Shown: positions 26,948 to 43,907 of the stretch, one piece after another
Layout of the letters: each line of letters begins with the position of its first letter
Numbering within the stretch: position 1 is the stretch's first letter
Assembly (NCBI GenBank): GCA_016180285.1
Contig: JACPBO010000005.1
Coordinates: 48,189 to 112,188 of the forward strand
Source of the DNA: Candidatus Woesearchaeota archaeon
GTDB taxonomy: Archaea > Nanobdellota > Nanobdellia > Woesearchaeales > JACPBO01
DNA length: 64,000 nt
Reading direction: 5' to 3'
Program-made: the position numbers and the translations under genes
The notes under the pieces: generated by a model
Told to the model about the DNA's origin: nothing
Seen by the model: the letters and a program-made list of their open reading frames with translations, nothing else
The model's database searches: none

Positions 26948-27664
26948 ATGGCTGAAAAGGAAACAGAACTCAAAATCAAGAAGAAAAAGTGGCATTCAAT
27001 CATAGCTCCAAAAATATTCAGCGAGCAGGTGATAGGCGAAACACTGGTTACTGATGTCAAAAGCCTGCTTAACAGGAGTATTTCAGCAAATCTGATGAAT
27101 CTTACTGGCGACCCAAAAAACCAGAATATAAACATGAAGTTTGCTATCAACAGGGTAGAAGGCAACAAGGTTTTTACTGATGTTATGGGATATATAATGA
27201 ACCCTGCTTCGATAAGAAGGATGATAAGGCGCGAAAAGGAAAGGGTTGATGATTCTTTTGCATGCAAAACACTTGACAACAAGATGATAAGAATAAAGCC
27301 ACTAGCGATAACAGTGGCATCAACAAAGAGCTCTATTCTTTCAAAATTAAGGAAGAAAATGCAGGCCCTGATCAAGGAAGCTGTTGCGAAGCTGAATTAT
27401 GAATCTCTTCTTTATGAGATTATTGACAATAAGCTGCAAAAGAGGGTGAAGGCTGATTTGTCAAAGGTTTATCCTGTTAAAAATTTTGAGATTAAAATGA
27501 TGGTTATTGAAGAGCAGAGAAAACAGAAAGAAGAAAAAGAGATAGAGCTAAAGGAAGAAAAGCCTCAGGCAGAGCTGGAAGGGAGCAAGGAAGAAGCAAA
27601 CGCCCAGCCGAAAGAAGAGGCAGCTGAAATTGAAAATAAAGCTGAGGAAACAGCTGAAGCGTAA
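26948..27664 (+). CDS. rps3ae: 30S ribosomal protein S3Ae (eS1), with acidic/Lys-rich C-terminal extension
   Basis: KKKKWHSIIAPKIFSEQVIGETLV...FTDVMGYIMNP matches the archaeal S3Ae family. Confidence 0.85.
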   Translation: MAEKETELKIKKKKWHSIIAPKIFSEQVIGETLVTDVKSLLNRSISANLMNLTGDPKNQNINMKFAINRVEGNKVFTDVMGYIMNPASIRRMIRREKERVDDSFACKTLDNKMIRIKPLAITVASTKSSILSKLRKKMQALIKEAVAKLNYESLLYEIIDNKLQKRVKADLSKVYPVKNFEIKMMVIEEQRKQKEEKEIELKEEKPQAELEGSKEEANAQPKEEAAEIENKAEETAEA

Positions 27665-27705
27665 ATCAACAACATTTTTATACTAAAACAATACTTTTTC
27701 TTTTC

Positions 27706-28494
27706 ATGCAATTAACATTGAACATTAAAAAATCAATAGAGCAGAATGCCGGGCATTATTTTGAAAAGGCAAAAAAAGCGAGAAAGAAAATAAAAGGGGC
27801 AGAAGAAGCCATATCAATGGCAAATGCAAAACTGGAGAAATTAAAAAAAGAAGCTGAGAAAGAAGACAGGGAAAAAACAGTTATTGAAAGGAAAAAAGAA
27901 TGGTATGAAAAATTCAGATGGTTTGTAAGCTCTGATGATTTTCTTTGTATAGGCGGCAGGGATGCTACGACGAATGACATCCTTGTAAAGAAGCATTTGG
28001 ATAAAGATGATCTTGTTTTCCATACAGAAATGCCTGGCTCCCCGTTTGTTATTATAAAAGCAGACGGCAAAGAGATCGGAGAAAATACGAAAAAAGAGGC
28101 AGCGCAGTTTACAGCTGCTAACTCCAGAGCATGGAATACGAGCCTTGTTTCTGTTGAAGCGTATTATATCAATTCAGGCCAGGTCTCTTTGGAAACTCCA
28201 AGCGGCGAGTATATGGGGAAGGGCTCATTCATGATATACGGCAAAAAGAACTTCGTAAGCTCTTTGCTGAAGATGTCTATCGGCATAATGAAAGACGGCA
28301 GAATAATGGCTGCCCCTGAAGAGGCTGCGAAGAAGCACTGCATTGCATATGTGAACATAAAACAGGGCAGTGTTAAAAAAAGCGACTGCGCAAAGAAAGT
28401 AAAGAAGATCCTTGAGGATAAATCAAAGATCAGGATAAGCCTTGATGATGTTATGGCAGCGATGCCGCCTGGTGACTGCGAGGTTGAGAAATGA
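27706..28494 (+). CDS. NFACT-R (DUF814) domain RNA-binding protein
   Basis: WFVSSDDFLCIGGRDATTNDILVKKHL...DLVFHTEMPGSPFVIIK is the NFACT-R core. Confidence 0.6.
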   Translation: MQLTLNIKKSIEQNAGHYFEKAKKARKKIKGAEEAISMANAKLEKLKKEAEKEDREKTVIERKKEWYEKFRWFVSSDDFLCIGGRDATTNDILVKKHLDKDDLVFHTEMPGSPFVIIKADGKEIGENTKKEAAQFTAANSRAWNTSLVSVEAYYINSGQVSLETPSGEYMGKGSFMIYGKKNFVSSLLKMSIGIMKDGRIMAAPEEAAKKHCIAYVNIKQGSVKKSDCAKKVKKILEDKSKIRISLDDVMAAMPPGDCEVEK

Positions 28495-28509
28495 TGTGGG
28501 AAGCAATAG

Positions 28510-28914
28510 TTATTCGCAATTTGATCTTGGGCCTAAACGAGATTCCAAAGAAGTCATAACTTGATTAATTAGATGATTGGCTGCATTGATGTCTTCCGTT
28601 CGAGTTAATCCTTTATTTTTCTTTAGGTGTAAAATATAACCTATAACTAGTTGATGATATTGTTGAACTAAATCATCAGATAATAGCCCTCTTTCTTCAA
28701 GTGCACTTAGCCTTAAACTTAAATTTCCCCACCACCCCACTCTCACCTTGTATTTGTTATTGGGGCTTGCACTATGAATAATTTCTTGCGGCATTTCATC
28801 AGAATATTCGTCTCTTAAACATCTAAGAGCACAATATTGTTTAGCCATGATTTCCATATCATTTAATGGCTTAGACTCTTCAATTCTTCCATCCGGCCAA
28901 AATATTTTTGTCAT
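28510..28914 (-). CDS. hypothetical protein
   Basis: A 134-aa ORF with no motif. Confidence 0.3.
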   Translation of the reverse strand: MTKIFWPDGRIEESKPLNDMEIMAKQYCALRCLRDEYSDEMPQEIIHSASPNNKYKVRVGWWGNLSLRLSALEERGLLSDDLVQQYHQLVIGYILHLKKNKGLTRTEDINAANHLINQVMTSLESRLGPRSNCE

Positions 28915-29100
28915 AACAAATTAAGAATGATTACTGATTTATAAATTTAATTACGATCCTAACTCAAAATCTCTTCAGCCTTTGGCTTCGTCAATTGACC
29001 TCACGTTGTAAGGTCAATGAGTTCAACAGGCATGCCGTACGCTTAATTCTTCTTAACCACCGCAAAAATTAAATACTAGAACTCTAAAGTAGTAGCTGTC

Positions 29101-29817
29101 ATGGGACTCACGCTTGATCAGGTTCATAAAGTGAATGAGCTGGCAAAGACCATCAAGAATACGGGCTTTGCTGTAAACATGGAAGAGGCTGCCAGAGTAG
29201 CAGAAAATATATTGTTTGGATCCGGGCTTGAAAAAAGGGAAGAAGCGCCGAAAGCAGAGTTGAGGATAAATGAGCCTGTAAAAGATGAGATTAGTAAAAT
29301 AAAATGGGTTGAAGATAAGGAAAAAGAGCCTGTGGAAAAAATAAGGGTGATTAAAGAAACGCCTCAATTTCCTGAAGCAGCAGAAGAGCCGGTTCCTGTA
29401 GAAGAGATTGAGCCTCTCAAGGAGGAGCAGGAAACGCTTTCTAATTTTGAGGATTTTGACATATCCAAAGAAAAAGAAAAAACATTGAAGGAATTATTTG
29501 AGGAAAGCGGCGAAAAATTTGAAGAGCCGGAAGTTGCAGAAGAAGCAGAGGCTGAGAAAACAGAAGAAGCTGCAGCAGAAGAAGCAAGCGAAGAGCAAGA
29601 AGCAGAAGAAACGCAGACTGATGAATCAACTGAAGAGCCGCAGGAAGAAATCAGCGAAGAAGAGCAAGCTGAAGAAACAGATGCTGAAGAAGAGCAGTAT
29701 GAGCCAGAAGAAGAGAAGGAAACTGATGAAGTTGCTGAAGAAAAGCCTGATGAAGAAATAACAGAAGCCGATAAGGAAGAAAAGCAATCAGAAAACGAAA
29801 ATTATGAAGAACAATAA
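29101..29817 (+). CDS. Highly acidic (Glu-rich) protein, unknown
   Basis: Structured N-terminal 60 aa, then an extended E/A/K low-complexity tail. Confidence 0.35.
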   Translation: MGLTLDQVHKVNELAKTIKNTGFAVNMEEAARVAENILFGSGLEKREEAPKAELRINEPVKDEISKIKWVEDKEKEPVEKIRVIKETPQFPEAAEEPVPVEEIEPLKEEQETLSNFEDFDISKEKEKTLKELFEESGEKFEEPEVAEEAEAEKTEEAAAEEASEEQEAEETQTDESTEEPQEEISEEEQAEETDAEEEQYEPEEEKETDEVAEEKPDEEITEADKEEKQSENENYEEQ

Positions 29818-34998: not shown

Positions 34999-35697
34999 TC
35001 AATCAGAATTTATTATTTTGTTCAATCCACTGTAATCCCTTCCTATGCTTACTGCGAAATGTTCATTTACTTTTTTTGGCGAGCTTGCAACATAGATTGT
35101 CAGAGGCGAGTTCTCATTGCCATTCAAAGCTATTACTGTTTCTTCACCCTCATTTGAATCATCGATAAAGACGCTTTGCTCTTTGCCAAGCATTGTTTTC
35201 AAAAAAGGCGACTCCTTTTTTTCAAGATGATGGTATTTGCCAAAGCCAAGATGGTTTGCAAATGGCCTTGCTATTTCCTCTATCGTCCTTGTAACCATTA
35301 TCTTTTCAGTTGTTTCAGGCAATGAGTTGAAAAATTCCTGAACGCCAGGATAAAATAGAAAATCGAATTTTTGCGAGTTTACAAAATGCCTGAACTTATG
35401 CCCGAATCTTTCATGATATTCAAACCACATTTCTGAGACAGCTTTTTTCGGCTGGAATATGCATTTGAAAATTGCTTTGGCAATCCAGGAGTAATGCTCT
35501 GGCTCCAGATAGCCTTCTTCCATGAACCTGCTTACAGCAAGATTGAATGTAGGGGAATGAATAAGCGTGTCATCAAGGTCTGAGACTAGATGCCTTGAAT
35601 TTCTTATTTTTTCTTTTACATCTTTTTTGCTTAGCTTCGATAAGACAAAGCTGCGGTTATTCGCTTTTGTTGGCTTTACTAGATAGTCGAGCTGCAT
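34999..35697 (-). CDS. HAD-superfamily hydrolase-like protein
   Basis: VSDLDDTL (DxDxT motif I) and a C-terminal IDDS. Confidence 0.5.
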   Translation of the reverse strand: MQLDYLVKPTKANNRSFVLSKLSKKDVKEKIRNSRHLVSDLDDTLIHSPTFNLAVSRFMEEGYLEPEHYSWIAKAIFKCIFQPKKAVSEMWFEYHERFGHKFRHFVNSQKFDFLFYPGVQEFFNSLPETTEKIMVTRTIEEIARPFANHLGFGKYHHLEKKESPFLKTMLGKEQSVFIDDSNEGEETVIALNGNENSPLTIYVASSPKKVNEHFAVSIGRDYSGLNKIINSD

Positions 35698-35734
35698 TTT
35701 TGATAGGAGATGTCATCAGTATATAAATTTTTAT

Positions 35735-35795
35735 GTCAAAAACCACCCATCATAGATGGGTGGCATGTAGCTACGTTCCATCGCATCAGGTGGTT
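35735..35795. repeat. Intergenic repeat copy A (about 61 nt) containing the palindrome CCACCCATC-ATA-GATGGGTGG
   Basis: About 85% identical to the reverse complement of copy B at 41575..41636. The shared flanks are gtcaaaaacc and caggtggtt. Confidence 0.6.
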
Positions 35796-35933
35796 AATTG
35801 GAAATGTTCACATTTCCAATTTGCTCAAAAATGCAAGCATTTTTGACATTTGAGCATGCTCAGAATTTTCCACATACAAAAAAGGTTGGCTTTCTGCTAC
35901 CAGTCAAAGACTGGATGGAAAATTCTGACATTT

Positions 35934-36386
35934 TTAAACAAGCGAATATTTATTGACATTTCTCCACTTAACAAATTCTCTTTGCTTTTTAGGAACATGG
36001 ACTATATTGTAATTTTCATCGACAACCTCAGGATCAAAAAGCGTTCTTCCATGGTCATCTATTAGAGGAAGCTTAATTAAAACTTTACACCTATTAGAAA
36101 GAAGAAGCCTTTGCATTTCTTCCTCAGGGATTTTAAAATTTGAAATATATGCAATGCTGTACTTTAGCTTTTCTCTTTCATTTTTTATTCTTTTTATTTG
36201 CATTTCAGACCTTTTTTTAGATCTTAAATAACGTAAAACAGTATAATGGTCAGTAACGTATTTGTCATAGTTAGTTGATCCAGACAGGCTGCATTCCTGA
36301 TGTGTCAGAAAACAACGAAAATGAGGCGTCCTTTCAAATTCCTTGACTAATTTCTCATATTTTGGCGTGAACAGCTCTTCTAGCAT
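35934..36386 (-). CDS. hypothetical protein (start taken at MLEELFTPKYEK)
   Basis: The ORF-track start is TTG, so the in-frame ATG at 36386 is preferred. No motif. Confidence 0.3.
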   Translation of the reverse strand: MLEELFTPKYEKLVKEFERTPHFRCFLTHQECSLSGSTNYDKYVTDHYTVLRYLRSKKRSEMQIKRIKNEREKLKYSIAYISNFKIPEEEMQRLLLSNRCKVLIKLPLIDDHGRTLFDPEVVDENYNIVHVPKKQREFVKWRNVNKYSLV

Positions 36387-36680
36387 TTTTTCTCGTTTAT
36401 TAAAAAAAGCGCCTAAGGGCAAACACGGGGGTGCTTTAAGAAAGAACCCTCAGGCGGCTTTATTTGTTTTCATCGTGATAAAGCGATATTTGCCTACAAT
36501 ATACCAAGCAGAACTAGTATTTAAATCTTTCGATTGTTTTACCACTAAAAAGTAACAAGATAAATATAATAATCGCAAATGACGAGCTTATTTCTTGCCT
36601 TTCTTTCCGCCACAACCGCATGATCCGCACATTTTGTTTGCCTCCAGGCTAATAAAATGATGCATATTTATATAATTAAC

Positions 36681-36959
36681 TCAAATTAAAGTAAGATAAT
36701 ACCATGTCTGTTTTGCTTTCTCCAAATTAAGTTTTCCTTCAAGGATTATCTTATTTTCCGCATTCACTGCTTCTTCTTCCGACATCGTTGACATATTCGG
36801 AAAGGGGGACCCTGCCCCAATATCCCTTTTTACTCCACGCATTGTCTTATATCTATCTAATACTTCTATCATATCATCTGCAAAAATGCATGCTATTGCA
36901 GCATTACAAGAGCAGCCATTGTGTCCTCTATAAACCTCGACCTTATACCATTGCCCCAT
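36681..36959 (-). CDS. hypothetical small protein with CSCNAAIAC motif
   Basis: A 92-aa protein. Confidence 0.3.
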   Translation of the reverse strand: MGQWYKVEVYRGHNGCSCNAAIACIFADDMIEVLDRYKTMRGVKRDIGAGSPFPNMSTMSEEEAVNAENKIILEGKLNLEKAKQTWYYLTLI

Positions 36960-37048
36960 TTTTTACTAAAATAATGGATAATTTATAAACTTTTGGTGAG
37001 CAAGTTTATCTAGTAACCTTTTTATATGAAAACAAATTCTTTCATGAT

Positions 37049-38308
37049 ATGATCATTGCAGACCTGCATTTACACAGCCGCTTTTCAAGGGCAACAAGCA
37101 AGGATCTCACTATTCCGAACCTTGAGAAATATGCCAGAATAAAGGGCTTAGATGCTCTTGGAACAGGGGATTTTACGCATCCGGAATGGCTCAATGAATT
37201 GAAAAAAGAGCTGGCTGAGGATGGAAAAGGCATTTTAAAGACAAAAACCGGATTTAATTTTGTTCTTCAGGCAGAAGTCTGCAATATTTACAATCAAGGC
37301 AATAAATTAAGGAAAGTGCATAATATAATCCTCGCTAAAAGCTTCGAGGTTGTTGATCAGATAAATGAACTGCTGTCAAAAAAAGGCAAACTTAAATCTG
37401 ACGGAAGGCCTATCTTCGGCTCTTATTCCTGCATTGAATTAGTTGATGATTTGATGAAGATTGACAATGATATTGAGATCATACCGGCGCATTGCTGGAC
37501 GCCTTGGTTCGCTATCTTTGGTTCCATGTCCGGCTTTGATTCAGTCGAAGAATGCTTTATGGAAAAGACAAAATACATCCATGCTTTGGAAACAGGGATG
37601 TCAAGCGATCCTGCAATGAACTGGCGATTATCAACATTGGATAAATTCTCACTTGTTTCAAACTCTGATTCGCATTCTTACTGGCCATGGCGCATTGGAA
37701 GAGAGGCAAATGTTTTCGAATTGAAAGAGCTGACTTATAAGAGCATAATCAATGCTATAAGAACAAAGCAGGGCTTTAAGGAGACTGTTGAAGTTGATCC
37801 TGGCTATGGCAAGTACCATTATGACGGGCATCGCCTCTGCAATGTCTGCATGTCTCCATCAGAATCAATAAAATTAAAAAATATCTGCCCGAAATGCGGC
37901 AGGAAACTGACCATAGGCGTAGCGCACCGCATTGAAGAGCTGGCAGACAGGCCTGAAGGATTTGTTCCAAAAGGCGCAGTTCCGTTCAAAAAATTAATTC
38001 CATTGTCAGAGATAATATCTGCGGTAATTGGATCAGGGATAGCGACTGCAAAGACGTGGAAGATCTATAATGACCTGATTGCCCAGTTTGGAAATGAGTT
38101 CAATATTTTATTGAATGCAGAAGAAAAAGAGCTGCTTAAGGTTGTGGATGAAAAGACTGCAAAAGCGATCATTGGCAACAGGGATGAGAAAATAAAGATC
38201 CAGCCGGGCCATGACGGAGAATATGGCTATCCTGTTTTAAGCGAGAAAGACATGAGAGAAGTAAAAGAGACTAAAAGAATACAGAAGGGCTTGTCGGATT
38301 TTATGTGA
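37049..38308 (+). CDS. Endonuclease Q-like PHP-domain nuclease with zinc finger
   Basis: N-terminal PHP motif ADLHLHSRFSRATS, further His/Asp metal ligands, and the Zn finger CNVCMS...CPKCGRK. Length and architecture match archaeal EndoQ. Confidence 0.65.
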   Translation: MIIADLHLHSRFSRATSKDLTIPNLEKYARIKGLDALGTGDFTHPEWLNELKKELAEDGKGILKTKTGFNFVLQAEVCNIYNQGNKLRKVHNIILAKSFEVVDQINELLSKKGKLKSDGRPIFGSYSCIELVDDLMKIDNDIEIIPAHCWTPWFAIFGSMSGFDSVEECFMEKTKYIHALETGMSSDPAMNWRLSTLDKFSLVSNSDSHSYWPWRIGREANVFELKELTYKSIINAIRTKQGFKETVEVDPGYGKYHYDGHRLCNVCMSPSESIKLKNICPKCGRKLTIGVAHRIEELADRPEGFVPKGAVPFKKLIPLSEIISAVIGSGIATAKTWKIYNDLIAQFGNEFNILLNAEEKELLKVVDEKTAKAIIGNRDEKIKIQPGHDGEYGYPVLSEKDMREVKETKRIQKGLSDFM

Positions 38309-38913
38309 TTTTTATGGACATAACAAAAGAGAGAATAAAAAATTTAGAAATGATTTTAACCCCGGTAAAAGAAAAGAAAGGAGCAATTCTACAAACAGTG
38401 TGGGGGTTAGGAAAAGTTGCTTGCGAACTTTATCTTGAAATTGAAGGCATTTACATTCCAATTCTAAATAAATACTTACAAATTTCTGGGTATATTGACA
38501 TGTTTAATGGCAGTGTAAGGCTGGCAAAATGTGACCAACCAGCTAAATTCAAAAGCGCAGAGACTTGGATTTATAAAATGCTTAAACTTCCTACTATAAA
38601 AAGCCTGTTTGAGAAAGGCGATGATATTTCCATTGACAAGATCACACAAATACATGACTTATGCAGAAGGCTCGATGTAAAGGTTGAAAACGGCCGCAGT
38701 AAAAAGTCTTACCCTCCCTATCTGATGTTGAAACTTGAAAAAACCCATATTGGAATGGCGTACGGCAAAAGATTTGAATTCAGGGAATATATTACTGATG
38801 AGTTTATCGAGAGGAATTCAGCTGTTATTAAAGAAATTTATAATGCGTTATTTAAAATGTACAATGAAAAAATTGAGGGATTTGACAAATGGAAAAAACA
38901 ATTAAACATTTAA
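38305..38913 (+). CDS. hypothetical protein
   Basis: A 202-aa protein whose start overlaps the EndoQ stop (ATGA). Confidence 0.3.
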   Translation: MIFMDITKERIKNLEMILTPVKEKKGAILQTVWGLGKVACELYLEIEGIYIPILNKYLQISGYIDMFNGSVRLAKCDQPAKFKSAETWIYKMLKLPTIKSLFEKGDDISIDKITQIHDLCRRLDVKVENGRSKKSYPPYLMLKLEKTHIGMAYGKRFEFREYITDEFIERNSAVIKEIYNALFKMYNEKIEGFDKWKKQLNI

Positions 38914-39506
38914 AAAAACAATATAAGGATAAAAGCTCTGAAATAAAGAAAAGGCTAGAGGAATTTAAAAAAACCGGCAAAAAAGATGTTGAAGATCTTT
39001 TCGTTGAGCTGTGCTACTGCTTATGCACTCCATTGAGCAAAGCGGAAAGGGTGATTCAGGTCATTAATTCCAAAAATAAAACTATTTTATTGAAAAAAGG
39101 CAAAAAAGAGCTTGAAAATATATTAAGAAGGCATGTAAGATTCCACAAGAATAAGTCAAAGTACATAATTGAAGCGAGAAGATTGTTGAAAAGATTAAAA
39201 GAACTTTCAAAAAATCCTGATGAAGCGAGGGATTTTCTTGTTGAAAACATCAAAGGATTGAGCTTCAAGGAGGCATCGCATTTTCTAAGAAATATTGGAT
39301 ACGGAGGATTAGCTATAATAGACGGGCATATTTTAAACTGCCTAAAAGAGCATGGTGTTTTGAAAAGCAACAAAAGGCCTAAAAATAAAAAGGAATACCT
39401 TGAAATTGAAAACAAAATAAAAGAATTTGCTGAAAAAGCAAGAATACCGGTTGATGAGCTTGATCTGCTGTTCTGGAGCAATAAGACCGGGAAAGTGCTA
39501 AAATAA
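38889..39506 (+). CDS. Archaeal Ogg2-type 8-oxoguanine DNA glycosylase / AP lyase (HhH-GPD superfamily)
   Basis: GLSFKEASHFLRNIGYGGLAIIDGHIL matches the HhH plus catalytic Lys/Asp region of the Ogg2 family. About 205 aa, as in MjOgg. Confidence 0.6.
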   Translation: MEKTIKHLKKQYKDKSSEIKKRLEEFKKTGKKDVEDLFVELCYCLCTPLSKAERVIQVINSKNKTILLKKGKKELENILRRHVRFHKNKSKYIIEARRLLKRLKELSKNPDEARDFLVENIKGLSFKEASHFLRNIGYGGLAIIDGHILNCLKEHGVLKSNKRPKNKKEYLEIENKIKEFAEKARIPVDELDLLFWSNKTGKVLK

Positions 39507-39532
39507 GTTTTTATGCGCAATGTCAGAATTTA

Positions 39533-39991
39533 TTAAAATGTATTTTTAGGTTTATGGATTCTTGTTTTAATGCCAATTTTCTCAGTTGCTTTTTTGAATT
39601 TGTCTAGATAATCCTTAAAAACAATTGCAGTTGGAGATTCTCCTGCCTCCACATTATACCTAAAATAGCTTCTTATGTTTTTTGTTACAATATTAAGCCG
39701 AGGTATTTGGCTTCTAGGACTGTCTGTTAATGAATTACCGCCACATGAAACTCCTGTGAATTCTCCAGTCCTCCTATTGTCCATAGAATATACATAAAAC
39801 GAGAAACATGCTTGATCAGAGCCAGGATATTGATATTTTAATATAGCCAACACATCTCCCCTTTGTTCTTTTTCTAGATTTGGCTTTATATTTTTTTGAT
39901 AGAACTTGACTATGGGCGGCACATCGGAGACTGAAGGGTCTAGTATTTCATTAAAGATATACACATCAATTGTTTTATAAGCAGTTTTCAT
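39533..39991 (-). CDS. hypothetical protein
   Basis: A 152-aa protein with no motif. Confidence 0.3.
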   Translation of the reverse strand: MKTAYKTIDVYIFNEILDPSVSDVPPIVKFYQKNIKPNLEKEQRGDVLAILKYQYPGSDQACFSFYVYSMDNRRTGEFTGVSCGGNSLTDSPRSQIPRLNIVTKNIRSYFRYNVEAGESPTAIVFKDYLDKFKKATEKIGIKTRIHKPKNTF

Positions 39992-40031
39992 AATTTTGTT
40001 GAAAGGAATATTAACTGTATTTTAAATTTTC

Positions 40032-41447
40032 TTATTTCTTCTTCGACAGCACTTCCACAACCCATTCCTTCTTTGCTGTTGTTTGGCCGTCAGAAACCGT
40101 TACTGAGATCTTCTTTGTCCCTGATGCTGTGAATTTCCTTGTTATCGCGTCTTTTCCTTTGCGCGTATCCAGAAATCCAAGATGCCAGGAATAAGTCAGA
40201 TTGTCATTATCAGGGTCTGAAGCATTTACGCTGAACCTCACCTTTGCGCCGACATATGCTTTTATCTTTTCTCCAGCTGGCTCATAATCATTTATTACAG
40301 GCGCTCTGTTTGCATCCTTGACTGTTAATGTGAAATTCTGCGTTGCATTAAGGCCGCTGCTGTCCCTTGCCGTGAAGGTTATATTGAATTTCTTCTGCCT
40401 TACTTTTACATCTTCATGCGATACAACACCATAATTTGGCTTGTAAATAAACCTGTTTTCAGTCAGGCTTGAATTGTAAGGAACATTTGGAGATGAAAAT
40501 ATCGGGGCATCACCGTCTGGATCAGATGCTTTAAGGTCAATAATAACTTCATCGCCTTCCTTGACAGCGGCATTCTTTATCGGATCAAATACAGGAGCTC
40601 TGTTTACATTATTCACAATTACAGAAACATCTTTTGAATCAGATAAAAATCCGTCAGATGCCTTTACAGTTACAATATGAACTCCGGCATCATCATAGCC
40701 GGTTGTTTTTTTATTTGAATCCATCCAGCCTCTGTAGCTGTATTTTATTTTATCATTGTCAGGGTCTGCGGCAGAGGCATTTATTACAACTTCCTCGCCT
40801 TCGTTGACTGTTATTGGAGCAAGGGCAGCTAAAACAGGCTGCCTATTGGCATCGTAAACCTTTACTTTGAAATTTTTTTCAGAATATGCTGTTCTTCCAA
40901 TCGCCTTTAACTTCACATTGAATGTTTTGCTTATTTTAACAAACGGAAGATTATCTATCAATCTGGAAAACCAGTTCTTTTTGACTGTGTCATAGCCTGT
41001 GGCCATGGAAAAATGATCATTAACGAATACTGCACCTTCCGGCAGGCTTACTGCGCTTATTGTTACATGATCGCCGTCAAGATCATAAGCGCTTGCATCA
41101 AATGATGCATCCTGTGTTTCGTTTACAGCAGCAATCCTGGCTGGATTAAATATCGGCGGCCTGTCAATATCTATGACTTTTATGTTTAAATCCTCTGAGA
41201 TAACAAACTCGCCGTCAGAAACAGAAACAAAGCTTCTGTAATCACCTGACTGGTTGAAATCAGGACGCCATTCCCCTTTTGAGTTTAAAGGCGGGGCATA
41301 GCTTATTGTTACTTTGTCTTTGTCAGGGTCATAAGCATTTACTTTGACTTTCAGCAGCTTTCCTTCATCAACTGTGAGATTTGCAGCAGCGAATACATAA
41401 ACAGATAAGACTATTATCAAAACTAAAAAAAGTGATAATTTCTTCAT
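40032..41447 (-). CDS. Secreted protein with repeated cadherin-like/He_PIG-type Ig domains
   Basis: Signal peptide, then several roughly 90-aa repeats such as VSVSDGEFVISEDLNIKVIDIDRPP, TVKASDGFLSDSKDVSVIVNNVNRAPVF and SVTVSDGQTTAKKEWVVEV. Confidence 0.55.
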   Translation of the reverse strand: MKKLSLFLVLIIVLSVYVFAAANLTVDEGKLLKVKVNAYDPDKDKVTISYAPPLNSKGEWRPDFNQSGDYRSFVSVSDGEFVISEDLNIKVIDIDRPPIFNPARIAAVNETQDASFDASAYDLDGDHVTISAVSLPEGAVFVNDHFSMATGYDTVKKNWFSRLIDNLPFVKISKTFNVKLKAIGRTAYSEKNFKVKVYDANRQPVLAALAPITVNEGEEVVINASAADPDNDKIKYSYRGWMDSNKKTTGYDDAGVHIVTVKASDGFLSDSKDVSVIVNNVNRAPVFDPIKNAAVKEGDEVIIDLKASDPDGDAPIFSSPNVPYNSSLTENRFIYKPNYGVVSHEDVKVRQKKFNITFTARDSSGLNATQNFTLTVKDANRAPVINDYEPAGEKIKAYVGAKVRFSVNASDPDNDNLTYSWHLGFLDTRKGKDAITRKFTASGTKKISVTVSDGQTTAKKEWVVEVLSKKK

Positions 41448-41574
41448 TAGCGCCTTACCCCCATAAAAATTATAAAATAAAAATTAAAAATGTCAAAAAT
41501 TTTCCAACAATCTTGGATTTGTGGCTGAAAGCCAATTCCCTTTTCCGATTGTGAAAATTTTTGAGCATGTTCAA

Positions 41575-41636
41575 AAACCACCTGATGCTGTAAATTGTAG
41601 TAACACGCCACCCATCTATGATGGGTGGTTTTTGAC
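41575..41636. repeat. Intergenic repeat copy B (inverted relative to copy A) containing the palindrome CCACCCATC-TAT-GATGGGTGG
   Basis: Direct comparison with copy A. It lies between the two paralogous Ig-repeat genes. Confidence 0.6.
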
Positions 41637-41639
41637 AAA

Positions 41640-42908
41640 TTAACCCTGCGTTACATCGCCGATTACAGGCGGCCTGTTGACATCTTTCACTGAAACTTTC
41701 AGATCCTGGCTGACACTCTCCTTGCCGTCGCTTACTGTTACTCTGACATTGTATATTGCGGTGCATCCCTTTGCATTGCATCCTTTTGGATACGCGTCAT
41801 CATATGTTGTCTGATAGCTTGATGAATCCGTCCATCCGCTGAATGTGATTGTTAAAGCATCTCCATCAGGGTCAGCTGCATCCACATTAATTTTCACAAT
41901 CTCGCCTTCATTCACTGAAATGTCATTTATCTTTGCAAGCACAGGCAGCTTGTTGCTTTCAATAACATCGATTGCAACTGTTTTTGTTGCAACATCCTTG
42001 CCATCTGAAGCGGAAACTGTTATTGTATAAGTTCCTGCATCCCTGTAGCCTGTTTTCCATGTTCCTGTTGCCAGAGGAGCGGAGATTGTGACATCAACCT
42101 TGTCGCCATCCGGGTCAATAACAATAGGCCTTACTTCAACTGTTTCGCTTGCCTTCACTTTTATCGGATCAATGTCCTGGATTACCGGCGGCCTGTTTAC
42201 ATTTGCAACATTTACTGTCCATTCCTTTGAAGCTTCTAAAGCGCCGTCAGAAACAGCAACAGTCACTTTATGCTGGCCTGCAGAGTCATAGCTCAGATCA
42301 TACAGATAAAGGTCTTTTGTTGAAACTTCCTTGTCATCAACTTTCCATAAATACATCAAAGCGTCCTTATTCGGATCAGAAGCTTCAACTTTAAATTCAA
42401 TTGTTTTTCCTTCATCGCTGTTTGCTATCAGATCAGAAGGCTTAAATGATGTAATTGTTGGAGCCTTGTTTGTCTTCTTTACAATTATTGTTATGTCTTT
42501 TGAAACACTTGTTGTTCCGTCTGAAACGGTTATTGTAACCCTATATTCGCCCATATCTCCGAGCTTCGTCTGCCACTCTCCTTTCTCGTTCAATGGCGGG
42601 CCGAATGTATAGGTTAAAGCATCTCCATCAGGGTCAGCTGCAACAAGCTTTATCTTCACCATATCGCCTTCGCTGACTGAAATAGTTGTCAATGCTGCCA
42701 GCTCCTGCGGAGGCTCTTCATGCTGCGGGGTCATATTTGCTGTTGCCTCTCCATTTGCAGGCTGCGTTGCATTCAAAGGCGCAATAACGCCTGTTCCATT
42801 CGAAGCAGGAACCAACCCCGGAAAATAATCCGGATATTTGTAACAGCCAGCTAACAGCAGAACTACACTCAACAAAATTAAATATCTTACACCCCTCATG
42901 TTTTCCAC
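41640..42908 (-). CDS. Secreted lipoprotein with repeated cadherin-like/He_PIG-type Ig domains (paralog of 40032..41447)
   Basis: Lipobox LLAGC, then repeats such as VTITVSDGTTSVSKDITIIVKKTNKAPTI, VAVSDGALEASKEWTVNVANVNRPPVI and VTVSDGKESVSQDLKVSVKDVNRPPVI. Confidence 0.55.
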   Translation of the reverse strand: MENMRGVRYLILLSVVLLLAGCYKYPDYFPGLVPASNGTGVIAPLNATQPANGEATANMTPQHEEPPQELAALTTISVSEGDMVKIKLVAADPDGDALTYTFGPPLNEKGEWQTKLGDMGEYRVTITVSDGTTSVSKDITIIVKKTNKAPTITSFKPSDLIANSDEGKTIEFKVEASDPNKDALMYLWKVDDKEVSTKDLYLYDLSYDSAGQHKVTVAVSDGALEASKEWTVNVANVNRPPVIQDIDPIKVKASETVEVRPIVIDPDGDKVDVTISAPLATGTWKTGYRDAGTYTITVSASDGKDVATKTVAIDVIESNKLPVLAKINDISVNEGEIVKINVDAADPDGDALTITFSGWTDSSSYQTTYDDAYPKGCNAKGCTAIYNVRVTVSDGKESVSQDLKVSVKDVNRPPVIGDVTQG

Positions 42909-43025
42909 CCCATTTCAAAGTAATTATCTATTGTTTCCATTTCATAATAATAACTAATATATAAAGATTTTGGTGATTTAGCAGATAAATGCAAAGGCGG
43001 GGTATTAAACCATTTTAACAGCATA

Positions 43026-43068
43026 ATTAAATAAATTAAATAAATAAATTAAATAAATCCAGCCAAAC
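43026..43068. repeat. AT microsatellite (aaataaatt)n
   Basis: Tandem units aattaaataaattaaataaataaattaaataaat. Confidence 0.6.
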
Positions 43069-43150
43069 ATGGCTTCGACGGTTTTTGCTATGCAAAAACC
43101 TACTCGGCACCCCGTAAGGGACAACCCCCGCCTCGTCTCGCCATGGCTGG
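43059..43150 (+). ncRNA. GC-rich structured element (candidate small ncRNA or structured 5' leader), unclassified
   Basis: A long-range helix pairs CCAGC..CATGGC (43059-43073) with GCCATG..GCTGG (43140-43150). Inside it are a 9-bp hairpin GGTTTTTGC-tat-GCAAAAACC and a GNRA-type hairpin CCC-GTAA-GGG. Local GC is far above the genome background. Strand is assumed. Confidence 0.2.
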
Positions 43151-43328: not shown

Positions 43329-43382
43329 CAGTTTGAATTCTACTAAAATCAGTTATGTCCAATTTGGAATCAGCTAATAAAA

Positions 43383-43401
43383 AATAAGGCAAAATTGTTT
43401 T
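43383..43401. repeat. 17-bp inverted-repeat arm (aataaggcaaaattgtt)
   Basis: Perfect reverse complement of 43817..43833. The pair brackets gene 43400..43759 and its promoter. Confidence 0.5.
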
Positions 43402-43759
43402 AATTAATTTTTATATTGCAATTAGTAGGCATATCAATCATATAATAAAATGGACCGCATGTATTACCATGAAGATAATTTGTGCTTTTGTTGTGATTTA
43501 AATTTAAATCACCACAAATTTTATCCAATTCCTTAGCTTGCTCATTAACCCTCTTTCTAGCTTCTTGTGCTAGTTTTTCTTCTCTTTCATTTAACTCTCT
43601 GTTTTCATAATCAGTTCTAGTGGATGATCCATTACTTAACAGATACACGATAATTAATTTCTTATCTGTTGTAATATTAAGCTCATAAGGCCTGCTTAAT
43701 GTAACAAGCTTTCCATCTAAACTTAATTCATTTGATTTGAGATTAATCTTTACTCGCAT
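43400..43759 (-). CDS. hypothetical protein bracketed by 17-bp inverted repeats
   Basis: A 119-aa protein with no motif. Confidence 0.3.
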   Translation of the reverse strand: MRVKINLKSNELSLDGKLVTLSRPYELNITTDKKLIIVYLLSNGSSTRTDYENRELNEREEKLAQEARKRVNEQAKELDKICGDLNLNHNKSTNYLHGNTCGPFYYMIDMPTNCNIKIN

Positions 43760-43816
43760 AATATTGGAATTAGTAAGAAGTTTATAAATTTTTGCATATT
43801 GATTTTACAGGATAAT

Positions 43817-43833
43817 AACAATTTTGCCTTATT
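43817..43833. repeat. 17-bp inverted-repeat arm (aacaattttgccttatt)
   Basis: Perfect reverse complement of 43383..43399. Confidence 0.5.
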
Positions 43834-43907
43834 TTTCTTATTTTAGTGCGCCGACAATTTCCAAAAAAACAACAAACTTTAAATAATCCTGAATTAAAAA
43901 TACGCTT

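Follow-up and report, generated by a model that had tools for sequence, protein, structure and literature searches.

What are the two inverted repeats that bracket a pair of DNA repair genes in a Woesearchaeota-like archaeon, and does their arrangement around these genes have a meaning? The question is raised by a 64-kb window of contig JACPBO010000005.1 (Candidatus Woesearchaeota archaeon, assembly GCA_016180285.1), the whole stretch of DNA analyzed here, in which two repeats, copy A (from 35735) and copy B (up to 41636), face each other across a 5.8-kb segment encoding an EndoQ-like nuclease and an Ogg-type glycosylase. All coordinates below are window positions, and L-numbers denote relative loci or contigs. 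A preliminary description of this locus had proposed 61-nt repeats that might invert the segment or, alternatively, form a family resembling miniature transposable elements with inverted repeats (MITEs) or a terminator/operator module. Our analysis indicates that the repeats are very probably transposase-less derivatives of IS200/IS605 insertion sequences (IS), of the palindrome-associated transposable element (PATE) or MITE type, in a family that is widespread in Woesearchaeota-like DPANN archaea. Copies A and B are two independent insertions, and their inverted arrangement around the EndoQ-Ogg genes is incidental.

The inverted pair itself is real. A repeat search of the window returned arms at 35734-35795 and 41576-41637 (62 nt, 85% complementary), both of the flanks reported earlier (gtcaaaaacc and caggtggtt) were found, and the window holds exactly two instances of the 21-nt hairpin CCACCCATC-ATA-GATGGGTGG, against zero expected from 100 shuffles. 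The gene assignments also held, with EndoQ matching PfuEndoQ (PDB 5ZB8, E 4.7e-59), the Ogg gene matching Ogg-HhH (E 1.3e-51), and two Big_9/PKD adhesin paralogues flanking copy B, one of which (40032-41447) lies inside the bracketed segment. The 61-nt unit was too short, however, since pairwise alignment and the empty-site comparison described below gave 146 nt, and the additional similarity does not extend outward as had been suggested but runs inward, into the bracketed segment, where the search found a second pair of arms (35886-35937 and 41484-41535; 52 nt, 77% complementary). In the pairwise alignment, copy A (35735-35930) corresponds to 143 nt plus a 53-nt insertion at 35796-35848. Further copies in the window were sought with the hairpin allowing three mismatches, the central palindrome and TTTTTGACA, and only copies A and B were recovered; five other TTTTTGACA matches were unrelated and mostly in coding sequence.

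The exact limits of copy B were read from strains that lack it. Among contigs from other sequencing runs, retrieved by exact-protein look-ups, L121 (SRR4343430, 7071 bp) shares 99.98% identity with 35908-41490 and 99.93% with 41637-43124, and is without exactly 41491-41636. The same interval is missing from L187 (SRR12113385), which encodes an identical adhesin. With a caret marking the junctions, the filled site reads ...ATTAAAAA^TGTCAAAAATTTTCC...GGGTGGTTTTTGAC^AAATTAACC and the empty site ...ATTAAAAA^AAATTAACC, with no repeated base and no target duplication. The missing piece begins and ends with bases other than those that adjoin it, which makes this boundary unambiguous. The two empty alleles also share a single-nucleotide polymorphism (SNP) at ~41471 (position 5566 in L121 and 265 in L187), reading TTTTATCAT where the window has TTTTATAAT, and thus represent a distinct haplotype rather than an assembly slip. 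Some 20 nt separate this SNP from the point at which copy B is inserted, and it falls within the TATA-like region that lies upstream of the adhesin gene at 40032-41447.

The exact empty site excludes a duplicated 3′ untranslated region of the paralogous genes as the source of the similarity, and it also bears on the MITE proposal. Classical MITEs are defined by terminal inverted repeats together with the target-site duplications that DDE transposases leave behind, and a classical DDE MITE was rejected here because no target-site duplication is present at the copy B empty site. What survives of the proposal is a mobile repeat family, with many copies elsewhere and a polymorphic copy B; its nature appears to be that of an IS200/IS605-derived PATE and not that of a classical MITE with terminal inverted repeats and target-site duplications.

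Could recombination between the two copies invert the 5.8-kb EndoQ-Ogg-adhesin segment? They are inverted, are 85% identical over 62 nt with a longest exact match of 31 nt, and no contig spans the copy A junctions. Those junctions aside, contigs from at least five samples nevertheless had one orientation only, identity is 77-85% beyond the 31-nt stretch, no recombinase or invertase was detected by Pfam in 33.5-45.1 kb, and the listed members of the wider family are not found preferentially as inverted pairs that flank a segment. In addition, the two samples without copy B (L121 and L187) keep the same gene order and orientation, which means that the arrangement is older than the second repeat. 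We therefore regard inversion of the segment, as put forward in the preliminary description, as most improbable. A site-specific invertible segment was likewise rejected as a class, with neither both orientations nor a nearby recombinase being found. The EndoQ-Ogg repair genes are not in a specialised invertible or mobile cassette.

The anatomy of both copies points instead to the ends of an IS200/IS605 element. Two subterminal hairpins of like sequence and the same polarity lie on one strand, referred to here as the top strand, which is the tnpA sense strand and corresponds to the window plus strand for copy B and to the minus strand for copy A. The left end (LE) consists of a 13-16-nt leader, TGTCA(A/G)AATTTT(CC), followed by an imperfect hairpin (IP_L), and the right end (RE) of (C)ATG/CACG, a 9-bp hairpin (IP_R) and an 8-nt tail, TTTTTGAC, so that the spacers are asymmetric and longer on the left (13-16 nt) than on the right (8 nt). 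IP_L reads CCAGTC-TTT-GACTGG, or CCACCAATC-TGT-GATTGGTGG in relatives, and IP_R reads CCACCCATC-TNT-GATGGGTGG. In the 146-nt copy B (41491-41636, plus strand), the LE (41491-41524) has the leader TGTCAAAAATTTT and a degenerate IP_L, CCAACAATC-TTG-GATTTGTGG, with two stem mismatches, and the RE (41608-41636) has IP_R as CCACCCATC-TAT-GATGGGTGG and the tail TTTTTGAC. The putative 196-nt element of copy A (35735-35930, minus strand; bounds set by analogy with the copy B empty site) has a 16-nt leader, TGTCAGAATTTTCCAT (35915-35930), and an imperfect IP_L, CC-AT-CCAGTC-TTT-GACTGG-T-AG (core 35900-35914), in its LE (35897-35930), and the same IP_R (35743-35763) and tail (35735-35742) as copy B in its RE (35735-35763). 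At 146 and 196 nt both copies are too small for a transposase gene, and the open reading frames (ORFs) over them (35798-35956, 41381-41554, 41447-41638 and 41470-41781) are short mechanical ones of 52-103 aa.

The interior of the elements has its own organization. At the central junction of copy B (41551-41583, plus strand) lie internal inverted copies of both termini, with GTGAAAATTTTTGAGCA pairing with the LE leader and TCAAAAACCACCT pairing with the RE tail. The halves of the non-autonomous elements follow the same plan (TGTCAAAAATTTTCC pairs with GAAAATTTTTGAGCA, and TCAAAAACCACC with GGTGGTTTTTGA), and since the terminus of each half recurs, inverted, in the interior of that half, a single strand folds into two adjacent long hairpins. 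These fold-back stems co-vary between subfamilies and are missing from the ends of the autonomous IS described below. The 53-nt insertion in copy A (35796-35848, minus strand) is a nested two-hairpin mini-element with no counterpart in copy B. Its top strand reads TGTCAAAAATGC-TT-GCATTTTTGAGCA followed by AATTGGAAATGT-GTGA-ACATTTCCAATT; its first bases are TGTCAAAAA, on the top strand it comes after ...CTCAAA, and no target duplication accompanies it. A different 53-nt insert of the same design was found at the same host position in L028 and is absent from the sister copies L077 and L109. Similar inserts were observed in L022, L030, L047, L060, L087, L088, L089, L117 and L119.

Further copies of the repeat were sought in related genomes, and many were found. 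A scan of one genome per GTDB species with the pattern CCACCCATC-NNN-GATGGGTGG returned at least 120 loci, and the family figures given here refer to the matches listed in that scan. The extended motif TGTCAAAAA-CCACCCATC-ANA-GATGGGTGG-CATG was present in 76 copies from about three dozen DPANN metagenome-assembled genomes (MAGs). After CATG follow a variable stretch, GTGGTTTTTGA, a second type of hairpin (CCAnnnnTC-ANA-GAnnnnTGG) and a sharp end, both ends of the family members being sharp. About two thirds of the loci belong to Woesearchaeota, Nanoarchaeota, Pacearchaeota and Aenigmatarchaeota MAGs or to bins labeled ‘uncultured Methanosarcinales’, and such bins match window genes at nucleotide identities like those of Woesearchaeota (68% for L110 vs. 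66-71% for L023 and 66-70% for L042). Both ends could be located at 59 unique sites, giving lengths of 109-308 nt with a mode of 145, and 57 of these 59 copies are intergenic, with no preference for facing gene starts or stops on either side. The element is multi-copy within genomes, and bin CAZTBE01 contains ~14 near-identical copies, the most in one MAG among the matches listed. Many copies are found at contig ends, as expected of a dispersed repeat that breaks assemblies.

The 9-bp stem was also observed outside this family. In Phycisphaerales MAGs it is part of a longer palindrome, GGTGCCA-CCACCCATC-NNN-GATGGGTGG-TGGCACC (L001, L008, L036, L043, L044, L049, L051, L054, L061, L062, L073, L076, L079 and L084), which occurs many times per genome, with at least eight loci from OZ245827.1, and which looks like a separate repetitive extragenic palindrome (REP)- or IS200-like repeat family in bacteria. 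The sequence CCACCCATCACAGATGGGTGGTCTCCTT(A/G)CGGT is conserved in L011, L017 and L078, which come from a bacterium of the Kazan group, an Aenigmatarchaeota MAG and an unclassified archaeon.

Relatives with the same ends link the family to a transposase. The Woesearchaeota MAG locus L108 has the hairpin end ~15 nt past the stop of a converging Y1_Tnp ORF, whose product corresponds to the C-terminal half of a Y1 transposase of the IS200-like kind (PF01797, 30.8 bits with the cut-off at 23). Homologs of this fragment, together with a metagenome scan with a TnpA alignment, provided 50 loci, among which many elements of ~620-650 bp consist of LE, tnpA and RE. With the hairpins in parentheses, these IS read ...TATAA^TTCTTCCTATTTCC-(CCATTAGTC-TTT-GACTAATGG)... 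on the left and ...(T/C)ATG-(CCACCAGTC-TGT-GACTGGTGG)-TTCTTGAC on the right; they have no terminal inverted repeat and are of the IS200 type, without tnpB or iscB. L143 contains a complete IS of ~622 bp (positions 1357-1978) with an intact TnpA of 145 aa (PF01797, 1e-15; NF033573 ‘IS200/IS605 family transposase’, 58.9 bits against a cut-off of 55). The nearest solved structures to this protein are the ISDra2-type transposases 2fyx and 2xm3, with which its HVH motif aligns and on whose WNPSY the catalytic Tyr of its WNPAYY falls. The RE stem and tail of copy A match the RE of the autonomous IS in L143 and L108, the L143 end (ATG-CCACCCATC-TAT-GATGGGTGG-TTCTTGAC) having the stem of the window copies and a tail that differs by one base, and the L143 LE hairpin, CCATTAGTC-TTT-GACTAATGG, is identical in family members L004, L030 and L040. 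In the IS copies, conservation of the RE ends after TTGAC, the next base being A, T or G, which is the boundary given by the empty site. In the RE hairpins of 16 IS and the 2 window copies, each of the nine stem positions forms a Watson-Crick pair without exception, with compensatory changes at six of them and wobble pairs at none; this set was hand-picked for clean hairpins, which inflates the percentage paired and not the diversity of pair types.

Two further observations were made among these IS. In L130-L134 (3057-3493 in L130), tnpA is split by a frameshift into ORFs of 56 and 79 aa, an arrangement seen in contigs of several Hainich groundwater samples and one NCBI MAG; this copy is decayed but conserved. 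In the right ends of L136, L140, L142, L144, L145, L151, L153, L154 and L162, the loop of the hairpin holds an insert of ~25-40 nt, TATAGCGAGCG...CGAGCGGTG, that separates CCACCAGTC from GACTGGTGG and is possibly another tiny element targeting the hairpin loop.

These relatives also allow a REP origin to be weighed, in which the palindromes would be kept by a domesticated, single-copy REP-associated tyrosine transposase (RAYT, TnpA_REP) and would not derive from an IS. Passages in the REP literature (PMC2817692, PMC8266576) do describe high-copy intergenic hairpins that are mobilized by Y1 HUH enzymes without target duplication. The TnpA associated with the present family nonetheless scores above the NCBIfam equivalog cut-off for IS200/IS605 transposases, its gene occurs in several copies, frameshifted ones included, and it is flanked by two differing ends with hairpins in direct polarity. 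The 146-nt unit with distinct LE and RE is, moreover, neither a 20-40-nt REP nor a symmetric doublet (REPIN). A REP/REPIN-RAYT system, with its single-copy RAYT and inverted REPs, was rejected on these grounds and seems to us very improbable.

The strong folding of the repeats might suggest that they are genes for a small structured RNA, for example a guide or antisense RNA, dispersed in multiple copies. As RNA, both strands of both copies folded better than shuffled controls (z = −4.1 to −7.5), and as single-stranded DNA copy B gave z = −5.1 and copy A −7.0. Compensatory stem changes, a TATA-like sequence at one end and a hairpin with T5 at the other would also suit an RNA gene. Both strands fold equally well, however, as DNA palindromes would, and the RE hairpin is without any G-U pair. 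The TATA-like sequence is part of the flank, outside the element, and a start ~25 nt downstream of it would land in the conserved stem. Rfam gave nothing meaningful, either for the whole window at the gathering threshold or for both copies at the relaxed threshold of E ≤ 10, ARAGORN found no tRNA or tmRNA, and the IS200-type relatives lack tnpB and iscB, the genes that would call for an omega RNA. We consider an RNA gene highly unlikely. Other candidates, namely integron attC sites, elements of diversity-generating retroelements, Xer/dif sites, C/D-box sRNAs and TnpB omega RNAs, were rejected because of a misfit in anatomy, orientation pattern or neighbors. A resemblance to a bacterial promoter at the end of copy B (TTGACA-16-TATAAT) was set aside as well, given that the host is archaeal and that the TATAAT part is flank.

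A selected terminator or operator at both loci, formed by the hairpin and its T-run, was the remaining suggestion of the preliminary description. TTTTT follows the RE hairpin on the top strand, the folds are strong, and the top strand of copy A is the sense strand of its flanking genes, the element starting 3 nt after a TAA. In contrast, copy B is opposite to its co-directional neighbors and dispensable in sister strains, the 59 listed sites have no orientation preference relative to gene starts or stops, and the same sequence is the end of a transposase-bearing IS. Copy A lies between a hypothetical gene (35934-36203, minus strand), on its TAA stop side, and a HAD-family gene (34999-35697, minus strand), and copy B between the stop of one adhesin gene (41640-42908, minus strand) and the start of the other (40032-41447, minus strand). 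Both are thus in gaps between co-directional minus-strand genes and yet oppositely oriented, which argues against a strand-specific regulatory role. As a regulatory module would leave the mobility of the family, the absent orientation bias and the transposase link unexplained, we attach very little probability to it; any terminator effect would be a side-effect of insertion, and copy A could incidentally terminate the upstream gene. Each copy lies exactly 3 nt past the TAA stop of its upstream minus-strand gene (35931-35936 and 41637-41642). The TAA is abutted by the left end of copy A and the right end of copy B, and the AT-rich target overlaps the stop-codon context.

The sequence into which the elements are inserted is conserved as well. 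At the 59 unique listed sites the LE flank reads T-(T/A)-T-N-A-A in forward orientation, that is, TTNA(A/T)A^ on the top strand. The left flank of copy B is ATTAAAAA^ (41483-41490, plus strand), unchanged in the empty alleles, which keep TTTTTAA, and that of copy A is TTAAAAA^ on the top strand (35931-35936, minus strand), overlapping the TAA stop at 35934-35936. Position 4 of the target belongs to the flank and not to the element, because it differs between identical elements of one genome (L112/L118 and L116/L077). Position 2 tracks the base beside the LE hairpin. Elements with GGAA had TTT at all 46 of their sites and those with GGTA had TAT at 12 of 13, the thirteenth also having A at position 2 (Fisher’s exact test over sites, 2.5e-13), and the same holds for all 13 + 7 distinct element tails. 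Target and leader change in a complementary way, target A occurring with leader T and the reverse, which is what pairing between a guide and the cleavage site predicts. In a third subfamily, the leader ...CTTTCC was found with the flank ...GAAA^ at two of three sites, a G/C position.

By analogy with IS608 and ISDra2, we infer that TnpA is the mobilizing enzyme, that its substrate is single-stranded DNA, and that the flank pairs with the 4 nt beside the left hairpin. A Y1/HUH TnpA, given in trans, would bind both hairpins on single-stranded DNA and cut 5′ of the leader, after the flanking TTNA(A/T)A, and 3′ of ...TTGAC. The top strand would then leave as a circle, the donor being resealed exactly, and the circle would re-insert 3′ of a further TTNA(A/T)A, duplicating no target bases (‘peel and paste’).

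Several points weigh against this interpretation. Whereas the termini are unrelated across the family, among the matches listed (e.g., CAACGGAATTCC... and ...TTTTTGAC), a 9-nt terminal inverted repeat (TGTCAAAAA/TTTTTGACA), with the form TGTCA(A/G)AA/TTTTTGACA in the window subfamily, is present in the window copies and some relatives and is atypical for the family. Searches by tblastn with TnpA found no tnpA within the 64-kb window, and none in 119 of the 120 listed hairpin loci. With its two stem mismatches in the left hairpin, copy B may no longer be mobilizable. An empty-site allele was obtained for copy B only, and the bounds of copy A are set by analogy because every contig covering copy A breaks inside it. 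In look-ups for an empty copy A site, for which the predicted plus-strand junction is GTATATAAATTTTTAT^TTTTTAAACAAGCG, the 162-aa ORF at 35934-36422 returned nothing and an 89-aa version L121 alone, and no such site was found. The empty alleles of copy B come from short-read de Bruijn assemblies, whose reads must contain the k-mers of the junction. In 73 of the 76 listed copies, ...TTGAC is followed by an A, which the empty site nevertheless keeps; this leaves a target preference for A at that position or a boundary displaced by 1 nt. Finally, no single guide-target register fits all subfamilies, parallel and antiparallel pairing each fitting some, and for this reason we treat the base-pairing step as an inference.

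Elsewhere in the window, a 25-nt inverted repeat (43380-43404 and 43812-43836, 92% complementary) surrounds a small ORF of 119 aa with a weak MrcB_N match (43400-43759, minus strand), and the region 27527-29770 contains GAA/GCA-rich low-complexity acidic repeats within coding sequence (families D1, D3 and D7).

The family occurs in very small archaeal genomes, which are considered poor in insertion sequences. Hairpin elements such as these break assemblies of DPANN MAGs, and an annotator may take them for regulatory palindromes, small RNA genes or inversion sites; once recognized, they offer a simple marker of strain-level insertion polymorphism in organisms that cannot be cultured. The dozens of natural insertions whose target co-varies with the bases beside the left hairpin fit the ‘transposon-directed target selection’ of IS608. 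A more far-reaching and rather doubtful proposal is that the family forms a natural series of re-programmed IS200/IS605 ends that acquired fold-backs. Subfamilies would have switched their hexamer target (TTTNAA vs. TATNAA) via guide bases beside the left hairpin, and the element would home to TATA-box-like TTNAWA in intergenic DNA. The fold-back architecture, which the parent IS lacks, could then be an adaptation for trans-mobilization from single-stranded DNA. A corollary, should this be true, is that the co-transcription of the adhesin paralogues could be affected when the element seamlessly enters or leaves the gap between them, with strain-level surface variation as the outcome.

How do these elements compare with known systems? 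The closest likeness is to the PATEs of Haloquadratum walsbyi and other haloarchaea, which are defined by near-terminal palindromes, no inverted terminal repeats, no target duplication and a length too short for a transposase, and in which the distance from end to palindrome is longer on the 5′ than on the 3′ side (Dyall-Smith et al., 2011; PMC3119063). In both cases the palindromes are akin to those of IS605-type transposons, a short 5′ targeting sequence is present, insertions are strain-specific, and small mobile repeats invade the elements without duplication (PMC3119063), the nested insert of copy A resembling those that target haloarchaeal PATEs. Unlike those PATEs, the present elements belong to a DPANN, Woesearchaeota-like host and not to Halobacteria, their related IS is of the IS200 type with tnpA only and not IS1341- or tnpB-bearing, each half has an internal inverted copy of its terminus that gives two long fold-backs, and the window subfamily has a 9-nt terminal inverted repeat.

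In IS608 of Helicobacter pylori, left cleavage falls outside the element, 19 nt 5′ of the hairpin, and right cleavage inside, 10 nt 3′ of it, and excision reseals the donor without gain or loss (PMC3201880). IS608 and ISDra2 of Deinococcus radiodurans share with the present family the subterminal hairpins on one strand, the left cut outside, the right cut inside and seamless excision (all predicted here), spacers that are longer on the left (19 vs. 10 nt in IS608, 13-16 vs. 8 nt here), a target that tracks the sequence 5′ of the left hairpin foot, and a TnpA that, in our related IS, aligns with ISDra2-type structures. They differ in that the window copies have no transposase, and in that the target is an AT-rich hexamer, TTNA(A/T)A, and not TTAC or TTGAT. 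REP/REPIN-RAYT systems are alike in being non-autonomous intergenic hairpins that depend on a Y1 HUH enzyme (presumably so here) and make no target duplication, and unlike in that our elements have two distinct ends, a conventional IS200 partner and no GTAG/CGTC tag. Classical MITEs, such as Correia elements and the SM elements of Sulfolobus, are also small, multi-copy, intergenic, AT-rich, trans-mobilized (as predicted here) and assembly-breaking; here, by contrast, the copy B empty site is free of duplication, and the ends are not inverted repeats family-wide. A 2026 survey describes IS200/IS605 as the most widespread IS family in archaea, names neither Woesearchaeota nor Nanoarchaeota and does not treat non-autonomous derivatives, and our full-text literature searches found no paper on IS200/IS605-derived small elements in DPANN archaea. 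Set against these systems, the kind of element and its mechanism are known, and what is new is this DPANN member, its clean insertion polymorphism and the natural guide-target series.

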